Below, one piece after another: positions 1 to 6,421 of a DNA stretch of 9,826 nucleotides. Where the stretch lies: IMG/VR virus record IMGVR_UViG_2619619132_000009; one strand, written 5' to 3'. The stretch is from a virus (lineage: Duplodnaviria; Heunggongvirae; Uroviricota; Caudoviricetes). Both the position numbers and the translations under genes were made by a program. The notes beneath the pieces were generated by a model. The model had not been told where the DNA came from, made no database searches, and worked only from the letters and a program-made list of their open reading frames with translations. Each line of letters opens with the position of its first letter. Positions within the stretch are counted from its first letter, which is position 1.

Positions 1-124
1 TCGGTTTACGGGAAACGGTAAACAGGGCGGCGAATGCCCTGCCATCGGACGGCACCGCCGTTGCCGCGAACAGGCTGGCAAATGCCCACACAATTAATGG
101 TGTTCCCTTTGACGGGACGCAGGA
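1..124. repeat. Left copy of the inverted repeat flanking the invertible tail-fibre segment; may extend upstream of the window
   Basis: Positions 1-124 are the exact reverse complement of 1196-1319 (checked base by base; identity breaks at 125/1195). Confidence 0.9.
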
Positions 125-353
125 TATCACTATCTCATCAGGAACAGTAACCGCCATAAGACTGGGGTCGGTGACCGCACATATGCCCGGAACATGGGAA
201 AGCTGGGATCTGAATCTGGGGGGCGGCAATGTTCTTACCGGAATTAAAGTACAGGATGTCGGTAAGAATACGGCAGATAACGTCGGCGGCGTGTATTACC
301 GGCCGTTGCAGTATCTGTTAAATGGAGCATGGGTGACGGCTGCAAGTATATAA
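1..353 (+). CDS. Phage tail-fibre protein, C-terminal portion (5' end lies upstream of the window); currently expressed tip Sv
   Basis: Open frame from position 3 to TAA at 351-353 with no stop (GLRETVNRAANALPSDGTAVAANRLANAHTINGVPFDGTQDITISSG...YYRPLQYLLNGAWVTAASI). Motifs are typical of side tail-fibre C-termini. A Tfa gene and an invertase gene lie adjacent. Confidence 0.8.
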   Translation, partial: GLRETVNRAANALPSDGTAVAANRLANAHTINGVPFDGTQDITISSGTVTAIRLGSVTAHMPGTWESWDLNLGGGNVLTGIKVQDVGKNTADNVGGVYYRPLQYLLNGAWVTAASI

Positions 354-361
354 TGATATTC

Positions 362-387
362 AGAAGGCCTTCCGGCCTTCTTTATTA
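362..387 (+). terminator. Stem-loop between the convergent tail-fibre tip and tfa genes, probable intrinsic terminator
   Basis: Perfect 8-bp stem AGAAGGCC/GGCCTTCT with a TTCC loop (362-381), followed by TTATTA. It lies between the Sv stop (353) and the tfa stop (385). Confidence 0.45.
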
Positions 388-906
388 CTGTGGCTGCTCA
401 GGCCATTTAATGGCGTTAAATTCAGCTTCTGTTTTAATGGCGGGTAGTTCCATTTTCTTCACCTGACTGATGTATGCCATCCATTGGGTAAGTGCTGCTC
501 TGTCTTCATCGCTGATGGTGCCCAGTTGTAGCTCCGTTCTCCAGTCATTAATTTTTTCATATGCCTGATTAAGATATGACTGGCGCATTGCTTCCAGTTT
601 TCTTGCGTAGTTAACCGGAATACGGGAGATTATGCCATTATCAAACTTCCAGTTTCCTGAAATATCCGTGCCTTCAGGGAGTTCATCGACCTCAACCACA
701 GAAAACCCCGCAGGATACAGCGCCGAGGCGTCCTGTGATATTGAGCAGATAACGCCGCTGTCAGGTGTTATGCAAAGTTTATATTTTTTGGTGAATAATG
801 GCAGGGATTCGTAGAAATCCTTACCATCTTCACTCTGGAAATACTGAACATTATTACCATATGGCATATTTTCAGGATAATAACGGGTTATATTTTTTAG
901 TTCCAT
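385..906 (-). CDS. tfa: Tail-fibre assembly chaperone (Tfa family)
   Basis: 173-aa ORF with a strong RBS (AGGAGG, 5-nt spacer, ATG). The C-terminal region (...DRAALTQWMAYISQVKKMELPAIKTEAEFNAIKWPEQP) resembles the conserved Tfa C-terminal domain. It sits directly downstream of the minus-strand fibre tip. Confidence 0.8.
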   Translation of the reverse strand: MELKNITRYYPENMPYGNNVQYFQSEDGKDFYESLPLFTKKYKLCITPDSGVICSISQDASALYPAGFSVVEVDELPEGTDISGNWKFDNGIISRIPVNYARKLEAMRQSYLNQAYEKINDWRTELQLGTISDEDRAALTQWMAYISQVKKMELPAIKTEAEFNAIKWPEQPQ

Positions 907-957
907 AAAATCCTCCTGGAAATAAATCTGTTTTAAAATATATTATTTACTGACTAT

Positions 958-1319
958 TTATAACTGAGATACCGTAATCCATGTACCTCCGACTAATTTT
1001 TGCAGGGGTCTGAATGCTATAAAATCGTTTGAAGCATCAACTTTACTGTCAATCTGCAGGCCTGCCATAACATTACCGTACGCAGAGTAATATGCCCCAC
1101 CGTACATTACCTGCCTGTTCTCTGCTCCCAGCCTGATATCCTGGATATATCGGGAATCCGCATCCTGCTGTGTTATACCAGAAGTGATGTTTATGTCCTG
1201 CGTCCCGTCAAAGGGAACACCATTAATTGTGTGGGCATTTGCCAGCCTGTTCGCGGCAACGGCGGTGCCGTCCGATGGCAGGGCATTCGCCGCCCTGTTT
1301 ACCGTTTCCCGTAAACCGA
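958..1319 (-). CDS. Alternative tail-fibre C-terminal cassette (Sv'), without its own start in this orientation
   Basis: Hand translation of the minus strand continues in frame from the right inverted repeat to a TAA at 958-960 (...GTQDINITSGITQQDADSRYIQDIRLGAENRQVMYGGAYYSAYGNVMAGLQIDSKVDASNDFIAFRPLQKLVGGTWITVSQL). It ends in the same RPLQxLxxGxWxT motif as the plus-strand tip and has no in-frame start codon. Confidence 0.6.
1196..1319. repeat. Right copy of the inverted repeat of the invertible tail-fibre segment
   Basis: Exact reverse complement of 1-124. Confidence 0.9.
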
Positions 1320-1331
1320 GGTTTTCAGGAA
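1306..1331. other. Putative gix/hix-like crossover site for the serine invertase (12-2-12 dyad)
   Basis: TTCCCGTAAACC-GA-GGTTTTCAGGAA: two imperfect 12-bp inverted half-sites (10/12 match) around a central GA. It resembles the recalled Mu gix site (TTCCTGTAAACCGAGGTTTTGGATAA) and sits at the outer edge of the right repeat, 65 bp before the invertase start. The left partner would be centred on window position 1. Confidence 0.5.
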
Positions 1332-1396: not shown

Positions 1397-1969
1397 ATGC
1401 TGATTGGGTATATCAGGGTGTCAACAAATGACCAGAATACGGCGCTACAAAGAAATGCGCTGGAATGTGCAGGATGTGAGCTGTTTTTCGAAGACAGAAT
1501 AAGCGGTAAGACAAGGGAGCGTCCCGGACTTAAACGCGCATTAAAGCGACTCCGGCCAGGGGATACCCTGCTGGTCTGGAAACTGGATCGCCTTGGACGC
1601 AGTATGCAGCACCTTGTCCTTTTAACAGAAGAACTCCGGCAACGCGGCGTTAACTTCCGCAGCATTACGGACAATATTGATACATCCACTCCCATGGGAC
1701 GTTTCTTTTTCCATATAATGGGCGCGCTGGCGGAAATGGAGCGGGAACTCATTATTGAACGTACACGCGCGGGTCTTGCTGCTGCCCGTGCTCAGGGGCG
1801 TCATGGCGGCAGACCTCAGAAACTGACAGAGAAAGAGCGGGAGCAAATCGCCCGTTTGCTGGCTAATGGCGAGTCCCGTAAACAAATCGCACTGATATTT
1901 GATATTGGCCTTTCCACCCTTTATCGTTATTTTCCTGCCTCACCAGCTCCGTCACCAAAAGTACCGTGA
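1397..1969 (+). CDS. pin: Serine DNA invertase of the Gin/Pin/Hin family
   Basis: 190 aa, MLIGYIRVSTNDQNTALQRNALECAGCE...VWKLDRLGRSMQHL...MGRFFFHIMGALAEMERELIIERTRAGL... Near-collinear with Mu Gin and e14 Pin as recalled, with the catalytic Ser in the RVST motif and a C-terminal HTH. Preceded by RBS AAGGA. Confidence 0.9.
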   Translation: MLIGYIRVSTNDQNTALQRNALECAGCELFFEDRISGKTRERPGLKRALKRLRPGDTLLVWKLDRLGRSMQHLVLLTEELRQRGVNFRSITDNIDTSTPMGRFFFHIMGALAEMERELIIERTRAGLAAARAQGRHGGRPQKLTEKEREQIARLLANGESRKQIALIFDIGLSTLYRYFPASPAPSPKVP

Positions 1970-2054: not shown

Positions 2055-4109
2055 ATGTCAGACTCCAAGTGGAAAATGCTCTCCGCCATGCCCGGAGAGT
2101 TTTCAGTCAAGGTTGCCGGTGGCACGGTGGCATTTATTGAAAGCCCTTTCCGCCCTTCGGGTAATAAAGGGGGGATCACCTTCGCAGACTGCGTGATCCG
2201 CTTCAGCACGAAAGAGCCATTATGGGTAATGCCGGTATCCGGTAATCCCAGTGCAGAAATCACCAGTTCAGGCGTGACTGGCATCATTCCAATCACATCT
2301 GACGTGGCCGGAACGCTCACGCCCTCCGACTGGAATGCACCGGATAACGCCGGGCCTTCCGGTAGCACGAATGGCAGCAGTTCAGAGCCGGAATATTACT
2401 TTGTTGTCATTCTCGCGGGTCAGTCAAATGGCATGGCCTACGGCGAGGGGCTGCCGTTACCGGATTCGTTTGACCGCCCGGACCCACGCATTAAGCAACT
2501 GGCACGCCGCAGTACGGTAACGCCCAACGGTACGTCGTGTACATACAACGACATCATTCCGGCAGACCACTGCCTGCATGATGTTCAGGATATGAGCGGG
2601 ATAAACCACCCGAAAGCTGATCTGGCAAAAGGCCAGTACGGGACTGTCGGTCAGGGGTTGCATATTGCCAAAAAACTGCTTCCCTATATCCCACAGAATG
2701 CCGGGATACTTCTGGTGCCCTGTTGTCGTGGCGGGTCAGCATTCACCACTGGAGCCGACGGCTCATTCAGTGAGGCCAGCGGTGCTTCCGCTGATTCTTC
2801 ACGCTGGGGGGCCGGTAAACCTCTGTATCAGGACCTGGTAAGCCGCACCAAAGTCGCGCTGGCGAAAAACCCGAAAAACAAACTTCTGGCTGTGGTCTGG
2901 ATGCAGGGAGAGGCAGACCTTGCCTCAGGAAGCCAGCAGCATAATAGTTTATTCACGGCCATGGTTCAGCAGTTCAGAACTGACCTGGCTCCGCTTGCTG
3001 CGCAGTGCGTGAGTGGAAATGCCACCACGGTGCCGTGGATTTGCGGTGATACCACGTATTACTGGAAAAACGCTGGCACCGATAAATATGAGGCAGTATA
3101 CGGTGGCTACAAAGGCAAGGAAGCACAGAAAATTTTCTTTGTACCGTTCCTGACGGATGAGAATGGACAGAGCACGCCAACGAATGCTCCGGCGGAAGAC
3201 CCGGATATTGTGGCTGTCGGGTATTACGGTGCAGCATCCCGAACCCAGGGCAGTTTTGTTTCGACACAGCGTGACAGCCATTTCAGCTCATGGGCACGCA
3301 GGGGCGTCATTTCAGACCGTCTGGCCTCAGCTATTATGCTCCATGCAGGGCGCACGGCTGAACTGATGCGCGGGCAGACCGTGACACCACCGGATGAGAA
3401 GCCGTCACCTGATACACCATCAAAACCGTCCACGCCACCCGCAGACACCACGACGATGAGTACGCTATTTGCTTACCGGGCATCTGAGTCTGAAGGACGG
3501 TTGACACCACAGGGTTGGGCTGCCGGAGGTGGCAAGGCTCAAATCGTGGATGATGCCGGAGCCAGCGGGGGTAAGGCAATGAAACTGACCAAGGAAACAG
3601 GAAGAGCCCCCTGGTACCTTGAGCATGATGCTGGTAATGGTGCGGACCTGCTGGGTAAAGGTGGTCTTGTCAGTTGTCGTTTTAAACTCGATGGCGCGCT
3701 TACGGCTAATCAGTACGCACTGGCGCTGTACTGGCCGGTTTCTGCCCTGCCGCAAGGGGTTACTCTGGAAGGAAATGCCGGTCATAACCTGCTGGCATCG
3801 TTCTACGTACAGAGCGATGCCACAGACCTTAACGTGATGTATCACAAAGGAAACACGGCGCAGAACACGAAGCTGGGGTCATTCGGCGCATTTAATAACG
3901 AATGGCATACGCTGGGCTTCCGTTTTGCCGGTAACAACAGTATTGAGGTGACGCCGGTCATTGATGGTAAGGACGGGACACCATTCATGCTGTCGCAGTC
4001 TCCGGTCGGCACGTTTACGGCAGACAAGTTGCGCGTGACCGATATCACTAAAAATGCGACTTACCCGGTACTGATTGACAGTATCGTGGTGGAAGTGAAT
4101 AACGCGTAA
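2055..4109 (+). CDS. Prophage NanS-p-like sialate O-acetylesterase (SGNH/SASA esterase) with N-terminal extension and C-terminal lectin-like domain
   Basis: 684 aa. The core YYFVVILAGQSNGMAYGEGLPLPD...PRIKQLARRSTVTP...GILLVPCCRGGSAFT...VWMQGEAD resembles recalled E. coli NanS/YjhS and prophage NanS-p proteins. A P/T/S-rich linker (PPDEKPSPDTPSKPSTPPADTTT) is followed by about 230 aa that look like a beta-sandwich carbohydrate-binding domain. Confidence 0.6.
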   Translation: MSDSKWKMLSAMPGEFSVKVAGGTVAFIESPFRPSGNKGGITFADCVIRFSTKEPLWVMPVSGNPSAEITSSGVTGIIPITSDVAGTLTPSDWNAPDNAGPSGSTNGSSSEPEYYFVVILAGQSNGMAYGEGLPLPDSFDRPDPRIKQLARRSTVTPNGTSCTYNDIIPADHCLHDVQDMSGINHPKADLAKGQYGTVGQGLHIAKKLLPYIPQNAGILLVPCCRGGSAFTTGADGSFSEASGASADSSRWGAGKPLYQDLVSRTKVALAKNPKNKLLAVVWMQGEADLASGSQQHNSLFTAMVQQFRTDLAPLAAQCVSGNATTVPWICGDTTYYWKNAGTDKYEAVYGGYKGKEAQKIFFVPFLTDENGQSTPTNAPAEDPDIVAVGYYGAASRTQGSFVSTQRDSHFSSWARRGVISDRLASAIMLHAGRTAELMRGQTVTPPDEKPSPDTPSKPSTPPADTTTMSTLFAYRASESEGRLTPQGWAAGGGKAQIVDDAGASGGKAMKLTKETGRAPWYLEHDAGNGADLLGKGGLVSCRFKLDGALTANQYALALYWPVSALPQGVTLEGNAGHNLLASFYVQSDATDLNVMYHKGNTAQNTKLGSFGAFNNEWHTLGFRFAGNNSIEVTPVIDGKDGTPFMLSQSPVGTFTADKLRVTDITKNATYPVLIDSIVVEVNNA

Positions 4110-4124
4110 GCAGGATAAAAAAAT

Positions 4125-4157
4125 GCCGCCGGTAAGGGAAAACAAGAAACCGGCGGC
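4125..4157 (-). terminator. GC-rich stem-loop flanked by A-runs on the plus strand (T-runs on the minus strand); terminator-like, orientation favours leftward transcripts
   Basis: 9-bp perfect stem GCCGCCGGT/ACCGGCGGC (4125-4133, 4149-4157), preceded by AAAAAAAT and followed by AAAAAG. Confidence 0.35.
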
Positions 4158-4253
4158 AAAAAGATCGTTATATCCAAAGCAAAAAATGCAGTGCACCTTT
4201 TTACCTAACAGATATTACCGGTGTCAACACCATGTCAATAATTGGGAGGGATA

Positions 4254-4436
4254 ATGACATTTTTACAGCTTATTTTATTGTATTTCTGCACGGCAGTATG
4301 TGCGTTATATCTGGTGAGTGGTGGTTATAAGGCCATCAGAAATTATGTTCGCCGCAAAATTGAGGACGCAGCAGCTGAAAAACTCAGTAAAACAGCGCAG
4401 GTAACTCCGCTCCCAAAAGACCCGACCCAGCCCTGA
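4254..4436 (+). CDS. Small hypothetical membrane protein (60 aa, one N-terminal hydrophobic helix)
   Basis: RBS GGGAGGG (4244-4250) then ATG at 4254. MTFLQLILLYFCTAVCALYLVSGGYKAIRNYVRRKIEDAAAEKL... The track's TTG at 4242 overlaps the RBS, so 4254 is preferred. Confidence 0.5.
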   Translation: MTFLQLILLYFCTAVCALYLVSGGYKAIRNYVRRKIEDAAAEKLSKTAQVTPLPKDPTQP

Positions 4437-4471
4437 TTGCAGGGCTTTATTCCCGCATAAGGAGGATATAC

Positions 4472-4726
4472 ATGCCAGAAATTAAAGGCACCGTCACTGA
4501 AGACCTGGTAAAACAGGCACTGTATTCCGGTGAAGTAAATAAGTTGCTGAAAGCGCAGGTCCGCAAGGATTTTGAGGCACAAATCGACACTTACGTTGAT
4601 GAAGTGCTGGCAAAACTTATTGGGCCAGCAGTTGCGGCCAGTGATGCTGATAATGAGCCGAAAACCGACGCGCAGCCAGAGCAACCAGACCCGGCTCAGC
4701 CCGGAACTGACAGTACCATGATGTAA
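4472..4726 (+). CDS. Small hypothetical protein (84 aa, acidic Pro-rich C-terminus)
   Basis: Strong RBS AAGGAGG with a 6-nt spacer before ATG 4472. No recognisable family. Confidence 0.55.
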   Translation: MPEIKGTVTEDLVKQALYSGEVNKLLKAQVRKDFEAQIDTYVDEVLAKLIGPAVAASDADNEPKTDAQPEQPDPAQPGTDSTMM

Positions 4727-4995: not shown

Positions 4996-5050
4996 GGTAA
5001 TGCTGCCAACTTACTGATTTAGTGTATGATGGTGATTTTAAGGTGCTTGC

Positions 5051-5326
5051 GTGGCTTCCATTTCCATCAGATGTCCTTCCTGCTCCGCTACTGAAGGCGT
5101 GGTGCGTAACGGCAAAAGTACTGCCGGATATCAGCGCTATCTCTGCTCTCATTGCCGTAAAACATGGCAACTACAGTTCACTTACACCGCCTCTCAGCCC
5201 GGTAAGCACCAGAAAATCATTGATATGGCCATGAATGGCGTCGGATGTCGCGCCAGTGCACGCATTATGGGCGTTGGCCTCAACACGGTTTTACGTCACT
5301 TAAAAAACTCAGGCCGCAGTCGGTAA
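5051..5326 (+). CDS. insA: IS1 InsA (zinc-finger/HTH transposition regulator)
   Basis: [43 protein letters not shown]...[14 protein letters not shown], 91 aa, GTG start. Confidence 0.9.
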
Positions 5327-5748
5327 CCTCGCGCATACAACCGGGCAGTGATGTGATTGTCTGCGCTGAAATGGACGAACAGTGGGGCTACGTCGGTGCT
5401 AAATCACGTCAGCGCTGGCTGTTTTACGCGTATGACAGGATACGGAGGACGGTTGTGGCGCACGTCTTCGGTGAACGCACTCTGGCCACACTGGAGCGTC
5501 TTCTGAGCCTGCTGTCGGCCTTTGAGGTCGTGGTATAGATGACGGATGGCTGGCCGCTGTATGAATCACGCCTGAAGGGAAAGCTGCACGTTATCAGCAA
5601 GCGTTACACTCAGCGCATTGAGCGACATAATCTGAATCTGAGACAACATCTGGCAAGGCTGGGACGGAAGTCACTGTCGTTCTCAAAATCGGTGGAGCTG
5701 CATGACAAGGTCATCGGGCATTATCTGAACATAAAACACTATCAGTAA
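5245..5748 (+). pseudogene. insB: IS1 insB frame interrupted by an in-frame amber codon
   Basis: The InsB frame reads ...LSAFEVVV then TAG at 5536-5538, then [69 protein letters not shown] in the same frame. Canonical IS1 as recalled has ...VVIW MTDGW here, implying TGG to TAG. Confidence 0.7.
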
Positions 5749-5763
5749 GTTGGAGTCATTACC

Positions 5764-6154: not shown

Positions 6155-6177
6155 TCGATCGTTTTTGTCGATCGATT
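6155..6177. promoter_or_regulatory. Perfect palindrome ATCGATCG-N7-CGATCGAT carrying two Dam (GATC) sites, upstream of com-mom; candidate methylation-sensitive operator
   Basis: 8-bp perfect inverted repeat with a 7-bp T-rich spacer. GATC at 6157-6160 and 6170-6173, with a third GATC at 6088-6091, all within about 135 bp upstream of the com ATG in an AT-rich divergent intergenic region. Confidence 0.45.
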
Positions 6178-6220
6178 GAGTGATAAAGATATCAACAACA
6201 AAGCAGGAGGTTATGCGGCC

Positions 6221-6421
6221 ATGTATCGAAACATACGGTGCCGACATTGTAACAAGCTACTGGCACGAGCCAGCTTCAGTTATCTGGAAGTTAAATGTCC
6301 GCGCTGTAAAACCCTCAATCAAATCACATCTCAGAGCGCCACAGAGCACCCCACATACACAAGGAAATCCTGTCGTGGGGAACAGAAAGCAAGTTACATC
6401 CCGTATCATCAGCACGCCTGA
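6221..6421 (+). CDS. com: Com-like zinc-ribbon translational activator (phage Mu Com family)
   Basis: [35 protein letters not shown]... has Cys at 7, 10, 26 and 29 (CxxC-N15-CxxC) and strong resemblance to recalled Mu Com (MKSIRCKNCNKLL...IRCPRCK). RBS AGGAGG lies 10 nt upstream; the 3' end overlaps the next gene. Confidence 0.75.

Follow-up and report, generated by a model that had tools for sequence, protein, structure and literature searches.

The closest described relatives of the locus reported here are the G segment of phage Mu, the C segment of P1 and the P segment of e14. In all of these a serine invertase (of the Gin, Cin or Pin type) swaps the 3' end of a tail fibre gene. The Mu segment is 3 kb long, is bounded by repeats of 34 bp, and carries two genes for tail fibre assembly proteins (tfa), one after each alternative fibre tip (S-U and S'-U'). 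The P1 and e14 segments likewise have two tfa, each tightly coupled to its own tip. Tfa is usually seen as a tip-specific partner that travels with each tip, a view that shapes host-range engineering and the annotation of fibre cassettes. The DNA examined here is viral record IMGVR_UViG_2619619132_000009, a stretch of 9,826 nucleotides (nt) that will be called the window in its entirety. It covers the right-hand end of a transposable, Mu-like myovirus prophage of Escherichia coli, and it begins with an invertible fibre cassette that has two tips and one tfa. An earlier note on this sequence had pointed out the asymmetry and offered three explanations for it: the expressed fibre needs no dedicated chaperone to mature, a single Tfa with a promoter of its own acts on both tips, or the switch is degraded and has lost a tfa. 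The second fits the evidence best in that Tfa appears to be a generalist and is preceded by an unusual spacer, while the promoter that it calls for was not convincingly detected. The reading preferred here, a single generalist Tfa that acts on both tips and is produced in both states of the switch, is put forward with about as much doubt as confidence.

An invertible fibre segment with a single tfa

Window positions 1-1331 are an invertible cassette of the Mu G-segment type, with gix-like sites, 142-bp inverted repeats and a Gin-like invertase. Its features are listed below by window position, strand and basis.

1-14, plus strand: left gix-like crossover site, inner half (alignment with Mu gixL/gixR and exchange points in flipped genome L006)
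1-142, plus strand: left inverted-repeat arm, 142 nt, 95% complementary to 1178-1319
3-353, plus strand: 3' end of the fibre gene (in-frame reading frame)
143-353, plus strand: variable tip A (class A1), stop codon 351-353, currently fused to the constant fibre gene (translation)
362-381, no strand: GC-rich hairpin in the gap on which tip A and tfa converge, terminator-like for the tip-A-sense (plus) strand
385-906, minus strand: the sole tfa, a tail fibre assembly protein of 173 amino acids (aa) (Pfam, PDB and profile matches)
907-957, minus strand: AT-rich non-coding spacer of 51 nt, from the tip B stop to the tfa start, with Shine-Dalgarno sequence AGGAGG
958-1177, minus strand: variable tip B (class B1), running on into the right repeat arm, silent in the present orientation (translation)
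958 to ~1320, minus strand: silent alternative 3' end of the fibre gene (window layout)
1178-1319, minus strand: right inverted-repeat arm, pairing with 1-142
1306-1331, plus strand: TTCCCGTAAACCGAGGTTTTCAGGAA, right gix-like crossover site (aligned against the gix sites of Mu and the flipped genome)
1397-1969, plus strand: Gin-like serine DNA invertase of 190 aa (Pfam Resolvase, 1.6e-51, and HTH_7)

The start of the window cuts the left crossover site, and its complete 26-bp form (TTATCGATAACGTCGGTTTACGGGAA) was read in L001, a copy of the whole prophage. The crossover sites lie at the outer ends of the repeats and match Mu gixL and gixR base for base, and the invertase is 74% identical to Mu Gin. 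The constant 5' part of the fibre gene is outside the segment, and the two alternative 3' ends are inside it, in opposite orientations. The left repeat arm codes for a fibre stretch that is identical in either orientation (GLRETVNRAANALPSDGTAVAANRLA..INGVPFDGTQDI). In the state found in the window (orientation A) the expressed fibre ends in tip A and has 293 aa, the full gene being at L001 19472-20353. In the flipped state (orientation B) it ends in tip B and has 296 aa, as in flipped genomes L006 and L007.

The N-terminus of the fibre is homologous to Mu S over residues 1-198 (phmmer E ~1e-46). The distal domain of Mu S is matched clearly by tip B (5YVQ_A, domain E = 1e-4) and that of Mu S' only weakly by tip A (8JU3_A, domain E = 0.55), and tip A also matches a solved short tail fibre (PDB 9cuy_c, 1.6e-9). 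The common RPLQ..L..G.W.T ending noticed earlier is indeed present in both (RPLQYLLNGAWVT and RPLQKLVGGTWIT), and homology between the two tips is not confined to it but extends along them (28% identity across 87 columns, BLASTP E = 3e-7).

The tfa product is a genuine member of Pfam Caudo_TAP, PF02413 (4.8e-19, 69.2 bits, cutoff 22.1), and resembles Mu U (PDB 5YVQ_B, 4.2e-16), with two-domain homology over residues 18-153. A hidden Markov model (HMM) made from the window's Tfa family plus Mu U and U' matched one gene in the complete ~38-kb prophage (L001 and L090), compared with two, U and U', in the Mu genome that served as control. The second tfa that might have lain elsewhere in the operon was not found by this search of the whole 38-kb prophage. 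The premise that each tip has its own chaperone is confirmed by the same search for Mu, and is general background for P1 and e14. Other open reading frames (ORFs) considered as a chaperone for tip A, namely a plus-strand ORF at 329-466, the DUF6645 esterase, DUF1378 and DUF826, have no similarity to Tfa.

The sole tfa has the same direction as tip B, from which it is separated by 51 nt, and it is convergent with the currently expressed tip A. The gap between tip A and tfa is 31 nt and holds the hairpin, which has a predicted folding energy of -20 kcal/mol (61-nt fold, z = -3.25). The description of a plus-strand tip that ends at a hairpin, without a tfa downstream, is therefore accurate. The further statement that tfa is coupled to the silent tip is right as to direction, but the distance of 51 nt is not that of a tightly coupled pair.

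Compared with the Mu G segment, the locus has the same neighbourhood (gp45-gp48 baseplate genes, fibre, invertible segment, gin, com/mom), tips that are homologues of the distal domains of S and S', and a U homologue as its Tfa. It differs in having one tfa instead of two, a segment of 1.3 kb rather than 3 kb, a fibre of 293-296 aa rather than 504 aa, repeats of 142 bp that code for a shared fibre stretch, a tip-tfa gap of 51 nt rather than 2 nt, and an esterase/DUF1378/DUF826 cassette between gin and com. The P2-like loci (L073, L074, L083, L087), in which a serine invertase also exchanges fibre 3' ends, display a mirror layout of tip-tfa / tfa-tip-invertase, with two tfa and gaps of ~8-14 nt, in contrast to the single tfa here. 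No description of a one-tfa invertible segment was found in the searchable literature, and scans of species-representative genomes gave nothing at first and then one partial match.

Some smaller observations concern the repeats and the tips. Both repeat arms of the window (1-142 and 1178-1319) encode ...RLANAHTINGVPF..., while in L001 (20001-20142 and 21178-21319) and most relatives the arm on the tip-B side encodes ...RLATPRNINGVPF...; the matching arms suggest gene conversion from arm to arm in the window's lineage. A frameshift in a G-run occurs in the silent tip A of FORC_043, a genome in orientation B (L007 3123-3349), and another in the expressed tip A of one IMG/VR contig in orientation A (L014 4361-4587). 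These could be real decay or homopolymer sequencing errors.

Inversion in nature, conservation and locked derivatives

The switch is active. Relatives were examined in complete E. coli genomes, in IMG/VR and in a Mu-like phage inserted into Shiga toxin (Stx) phages. The segment is flipped in two complete genomes, NCCP 13983 and FORC_043, where the order is baseplate genes, the 296-aa fibre ending in tip B, a co-directional tfa and a silent tip A. Polymorphisms internal to the repeats move with the segment, indicating that exchange takes place at the gix sites. Of the prophages inserted in the usher gene elfC, that of FORC_069 has orientation A, and those of NCCP 13983 and FORC_043 have orientation B. 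With a single insertion site and opposite orientations, the same lysogenic lineage shows both states. Each subgroup of relatives includes both orientations, and the ratio of A to B is 18:2 among near-identical RefSeq copies and 18:7 among IMG/VR loci with readable orientation, tallies that are partly clonal and come from consensus assemblies, which hide mixtures.

The near-identical prophage is present at no fewer than six chromosomal sites (the Ag43 gene in the window, rhsC, sgrR, elfC, gspM and a CP4-like island), and so represents a recently mobile phage. Five of the six sites have been seen only with orientation A, and elfC with both. In Mu, a new lysogen begins in the orientation of the infecting genome. 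If that rule applies here, particles with tip A would be infectious on E. coli, because five of six insertions show A alone, in a sample that is small and partly clonal.

The comparison with relatives proposed in the earlier note gives a uniform picture. In all those examined the constant part of the fibre is followed by a tip, the one tfa, the other tip and the invertase. This layout extends over relatives at ~83-90% DNA identity as well as those with a Tfa of 61-62% identity, and its retention across such a diverged family indicates that it is not a product of decay.

Eight loci (E. coli M3 and seven IMG/VR contigs) have no tip B and no invertase, and are locked in orientation A. They share one identical deletion junction, at which the antisense 3' end of gin is joined to the final ~20 codons of a tip of class B3, with most of gin gone.

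L004 3907-4210; L020 3786-4000; also L024-L029; no strand: junction of the locked derivatives (sequence comparison)

Each of the eight has a fibre that can end only in an A-class tip, and each retains a convergent, full-length tfa (173 aa), beside a tip remnant that has decayed through substitutions and an indel. The locked lineage holds both A1 and A2 tips, so tip exchange went on after the deletion.

These results bear on the proposal that the switch is degraded, a second tfa having been lost, such that orientation A gives fibre-less or non-infectious particles and only B is productive. The textbook systems do have two tfa (as checked in Mu), and at the place where a tfa would be expected after tip A there is merely the 31-nt gap with its hairpin. 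Against this, the layout persists through deep divergence (Tfa identities as low as 61%), orientation A is the commoner one and occurs at six or more independent insertion sites of a near-identical mobile prophage, and the locked derivatives persist, keep their tfa in all eight loci and exchange tips. A degraded switch is therefore judged highly improbable.

Tfa specificity and the maturation of tip A

Within the family, position-A tips are of classes A1 (as in the window) and A2, and position-B tips of classes B1, B2 and B3. Three Tfa types (I, II and III) are distributed across them: A1 tips are paired with types I and II, and each of A2, B2 and B3 with both II and III. A Tfa that is 90% identical to that of the window is found with tips only ~31-43% identical to the window's (tblastn). 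Judged from these pairings, Tfa is not tip-specific, the three types recombining freely with the five tip classes.

The two halves of Tfa also differ in conservation, the N-terminal half (putatively fibre-binding) being 60-73% conserved and the C-terminal half 49-56%. In the parts of PMC9608196 that cite North et al. 2019, the N-domain of Mu Tfa is said to bind the fibre, and the Tfa family to have a variable N-domain and a conserved C-domain. The subfamily of the window, with its better-conserved N-domain, differs in this respect from published TfaMu (U, PDB 5YVQ). Better conservation of the N-terminal half, in spite of the diversity of the tips, suggests that Tfa recognizes something common to all of them, for which the shared C-terminal tip motif would be the obvious candidate. 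Two tips that share one Tfa, and five tip classes with three interchangeable Tfa types, argue for recognition of a conserved feature of the tip fold. If this is true, the Tfa subfamily would be a convenient universal chaperone for tip swapping.

Relatives of tip A are also found in fixed fibre-Tfa modules, which have homologues of tip A and a Tfa of the same Pfam family, but differ from the window in having no invertase or alternative tip, and in having the Tfa gene immediately after the fibre gene, in one operon with it. In prophages with Mu-like baseplates (L043-54) a fibre of 269-332 aa ends in an A2-like tip (58-62% identical), and is followed after 14 nt by a Tfa that is 58-62% identical to that of the window. 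In phages POP15, PBES 02 and 19-1-2 (Vequintavirinae) and Actinobacillus phage pPE4, which were chosen solely for their resemblance to tip A, the fibre gene is followed at a distance of 2-17 nt by a Caudo_TAP gene. Tip-A-like tips elsewhere thus always precede a Tfa gene by 2-17 nt, which makes a tip class that folds without a chaperone, the possibility raised in the earlier note, unlikely, and tip A probably needs Tfa as well.

The alternative is a real asymmetry, in which tip A folds without Tfa, and Tfa serves only tip B, perhaps staying attached to that fibre and acting as a co-adhesin. Each inversion would then change not only the tip but also whether a chaperone cap is present. In orientation A tfa lies antisense to the late operon, and scans revealed no promoter for it (see below), A-class tips have a distinctive ADN(I/V)GGVYY motif in common, tip classes of position A are never found at position B in the family, and orientation A is common and so must be viable. 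All of these would agree with such an asymmetry. Against it stand the fixed modules, where A-class-like tips always have a Caudo_TAP gene in cis (in L043-54 that of a 58-62% identical relative), the homology of tip A to tip B and to the Tfa-dependent S and S' tips of Mu, and the locked derivatives, which keep tfa intact beside decayed remnants. On balance the expressed fibre is unlikely to mature without its chaperone. A related version, considered distinctly unlikely, is that inversion toggles more than the tip, the B fibre being made with Tfa and the A1 and A2 tips maturing with little or none. In Mu, Tfa stays on the virion and contributes to recognition of the host receptor. If the version with little or no Tfa on A tips is true, the cassette would contain a natural chaperone-independent member of a Tfa-dependent fold, and would be a two-parameter host-range switch.

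Under the favoured reading, of one generalist Tfa for both tips, the Gin-like invertase would flip the 1.3-kb segment and fuse the constant fibre gene to either tip A or tip B, as a host-range switch. Both tips, having a small distal fold and a YRPxQ...W ending in common, would be matured by the single Tfa. In state B, tfa would share a late tail operon transcript with tip B. In state A, it would be transcribed separately, from signals in the spacer or further upstream on the minus strand, and be translated from its own Shine-Dalgarno sequence.

The spacer sets the family sharply apart from coupled modules. The distance from tip stop to tfa start is 51, 79, 86 or 120-121 nt in every one-tfa family member, versus 5-17 nt in all 49 coupled modules fetched, and 2 nt for both S-U and S'-U' in Mu. 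This expanded spacer upstream of tfa is a candidate seat of tfa expression signals that act independently of orientation. In all three spacer types a -10-like hexamer (5/6) lies 30-36 nt before the ATG, found by reading the sequences and weak as evidence in DNA so rich in AT. Scans for sigma-70 promoters covered the window, L008 and one locked variant, and the best matches on the tfa-sense strand of the invertible members reached 8/12, e.g. GTTATA-16-TATATT in the spacer. In the locked loci, the tfa-sense strand of the junction has, ~125 nt upstream of tfa, a near-consensus sigma-70-like site (ATGATA-17-TATAAT, 10/12), whose TATAAT arose inside the decayed tip remnant. Selection for tfa expression in the locked antisense state would fit this promoter-like site, although the site is not proof of it.

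A number of points weigh against Tfa being made for both tips in both orientations. No sigma-70-type promoter of 9/12 or better was found on the tfa-sense strand from gin to tfa in the window and L008, and no dyad of the form TTAT-N6-ATAA, which we take to represent the Mu C-box, was found upstream of tfa. As the searches yielded no convincing promoter, expression of tfa in state A is, above all, the step that has to be inferred. The region upstream of com/mom likewise has no such dyad, and the motif may thus be the wrong one for this phage. The Mu C-box is given as a "16-bp imperfect dyad centred at -43.5" (PMC2582627). Tfa dosage is a further difficulty: as PMC9608196 puts it where North et al. 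2019 is cited, Mu Tfa stays bound on the mature fibre, and if it is kept there a weak promoter might not supply enough protein. Position-A and position-B tip classes never swap places in the family, which could reflect a real functional asymmetry. Among the locked variants the ratio of non-synonymous to synonymous change (dN/dS) in tfa is 0.10-0.23, a low value that is confounded by recombination with invertible relatives (tfa is more diverged there than the flanking neutral remnants, and tips have been exchanged) and counts as supporting evidence only. The clonal component of the orientation tallies, and the mixtures hidden by consensus assemblies, also count on this side.

The dyad TTAT-N6-ATAA, with one mismatch allowed, is enriched in the window as a whole (11 matches, 3.2 expected). 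A promoter inside the inverted repeat, pointing inwards, would always read into the silent side; such a candidate was dropped, as inspection by eye showed a TTGACG -35-like hexamer with no usable -10.

Expression of tfa in orientation A would not be needed if Tfa were supplied in trans, with no dedicated promoter, either by a minority of sibling copies that flip during replicative transposition or by the tfa of other prophages. In favour of this, inversion is seen in lysogens, Mu-type phages multiply to many copies in an induced cell, Tfa proteins are known to cross-complement, and the Tfa of a Rac-type prophage is 49% identical to that of the window. Flipped copies would, however, make tip B subunits too, and reliance on other prophages leaves the retention of the phage's own tfa unexplained. 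Moreover, the locked derivatives, with neither invertase nor tip B, cannot flip, yet they keep an antisense tfa and diversify. Supply in trans is accordingly regarded as very doubtful.

The cassette raises the question of how a gene that lies within an invertible segment would be expressed both ways round. What is reported here is a refinement of the Mu G-segment paradigm and overturns nothing; its value is as a natural test case for the specificity of Tfa and for gene expression within an invertible segment.

The prophage and its neighbouring genes

The whole element is known from L001/L090 (strain JE86-ST05), where it is ~38 kb long and 99.4% identical to the window prophage. Its gene order is repressor, transposase, Mor, head, sheath, tube, gp45-48 baseplate, 293-aa fibre, cassette, invertase, com/mom. 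Rightward of the invertase, the window contains a SASA/DUF6645 esterase, DUF1378, DUF826, IS1, com/mom and an Ag43/Cah gene.

The cargo between invertase and com/mom (window 2055-4726) consists of a fusion of a SASA sialate-O-acetylesterase with DUF6645 (684 aa), followed by DUF1378 and DUF826. It is kept in all relatives, the locked derivatives included, and is the same trio as that downstream of stx in Stx phages (the nanS-p region). A perfect dyad, TTATTCCCGCATAA, is found at window 4447-4460, 12 nt upstream of the DUF826 start. An IS1 of 768 bp is inserted at window 4996-5763 (insA/insB ORFs 5051-5748), with a 9-bp target duplication, CAAAGTGAT, on both sides. It is absent from the L001 prophage, which is otherwise 99.7% identical, and in the window it splits a small minus-strand gene, which is WP_000571916.1 in L001.

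The com and mom genes are at window 6176-7112. As in Mu, the com ORF, with its zinc-finger motif CRHCNKLL...CPRCKTLN, overlaps the start of the mom frame; com is annotated as frameshifted in L001. The right end of the prophage is at ~7240, where it adjoins a 5'-truncated autotransporter gene of the Ag43/Cah family (window 7240-9200). The loss of the 5' part of this gene from the window indicates that the Mu-like phage transposed into it.

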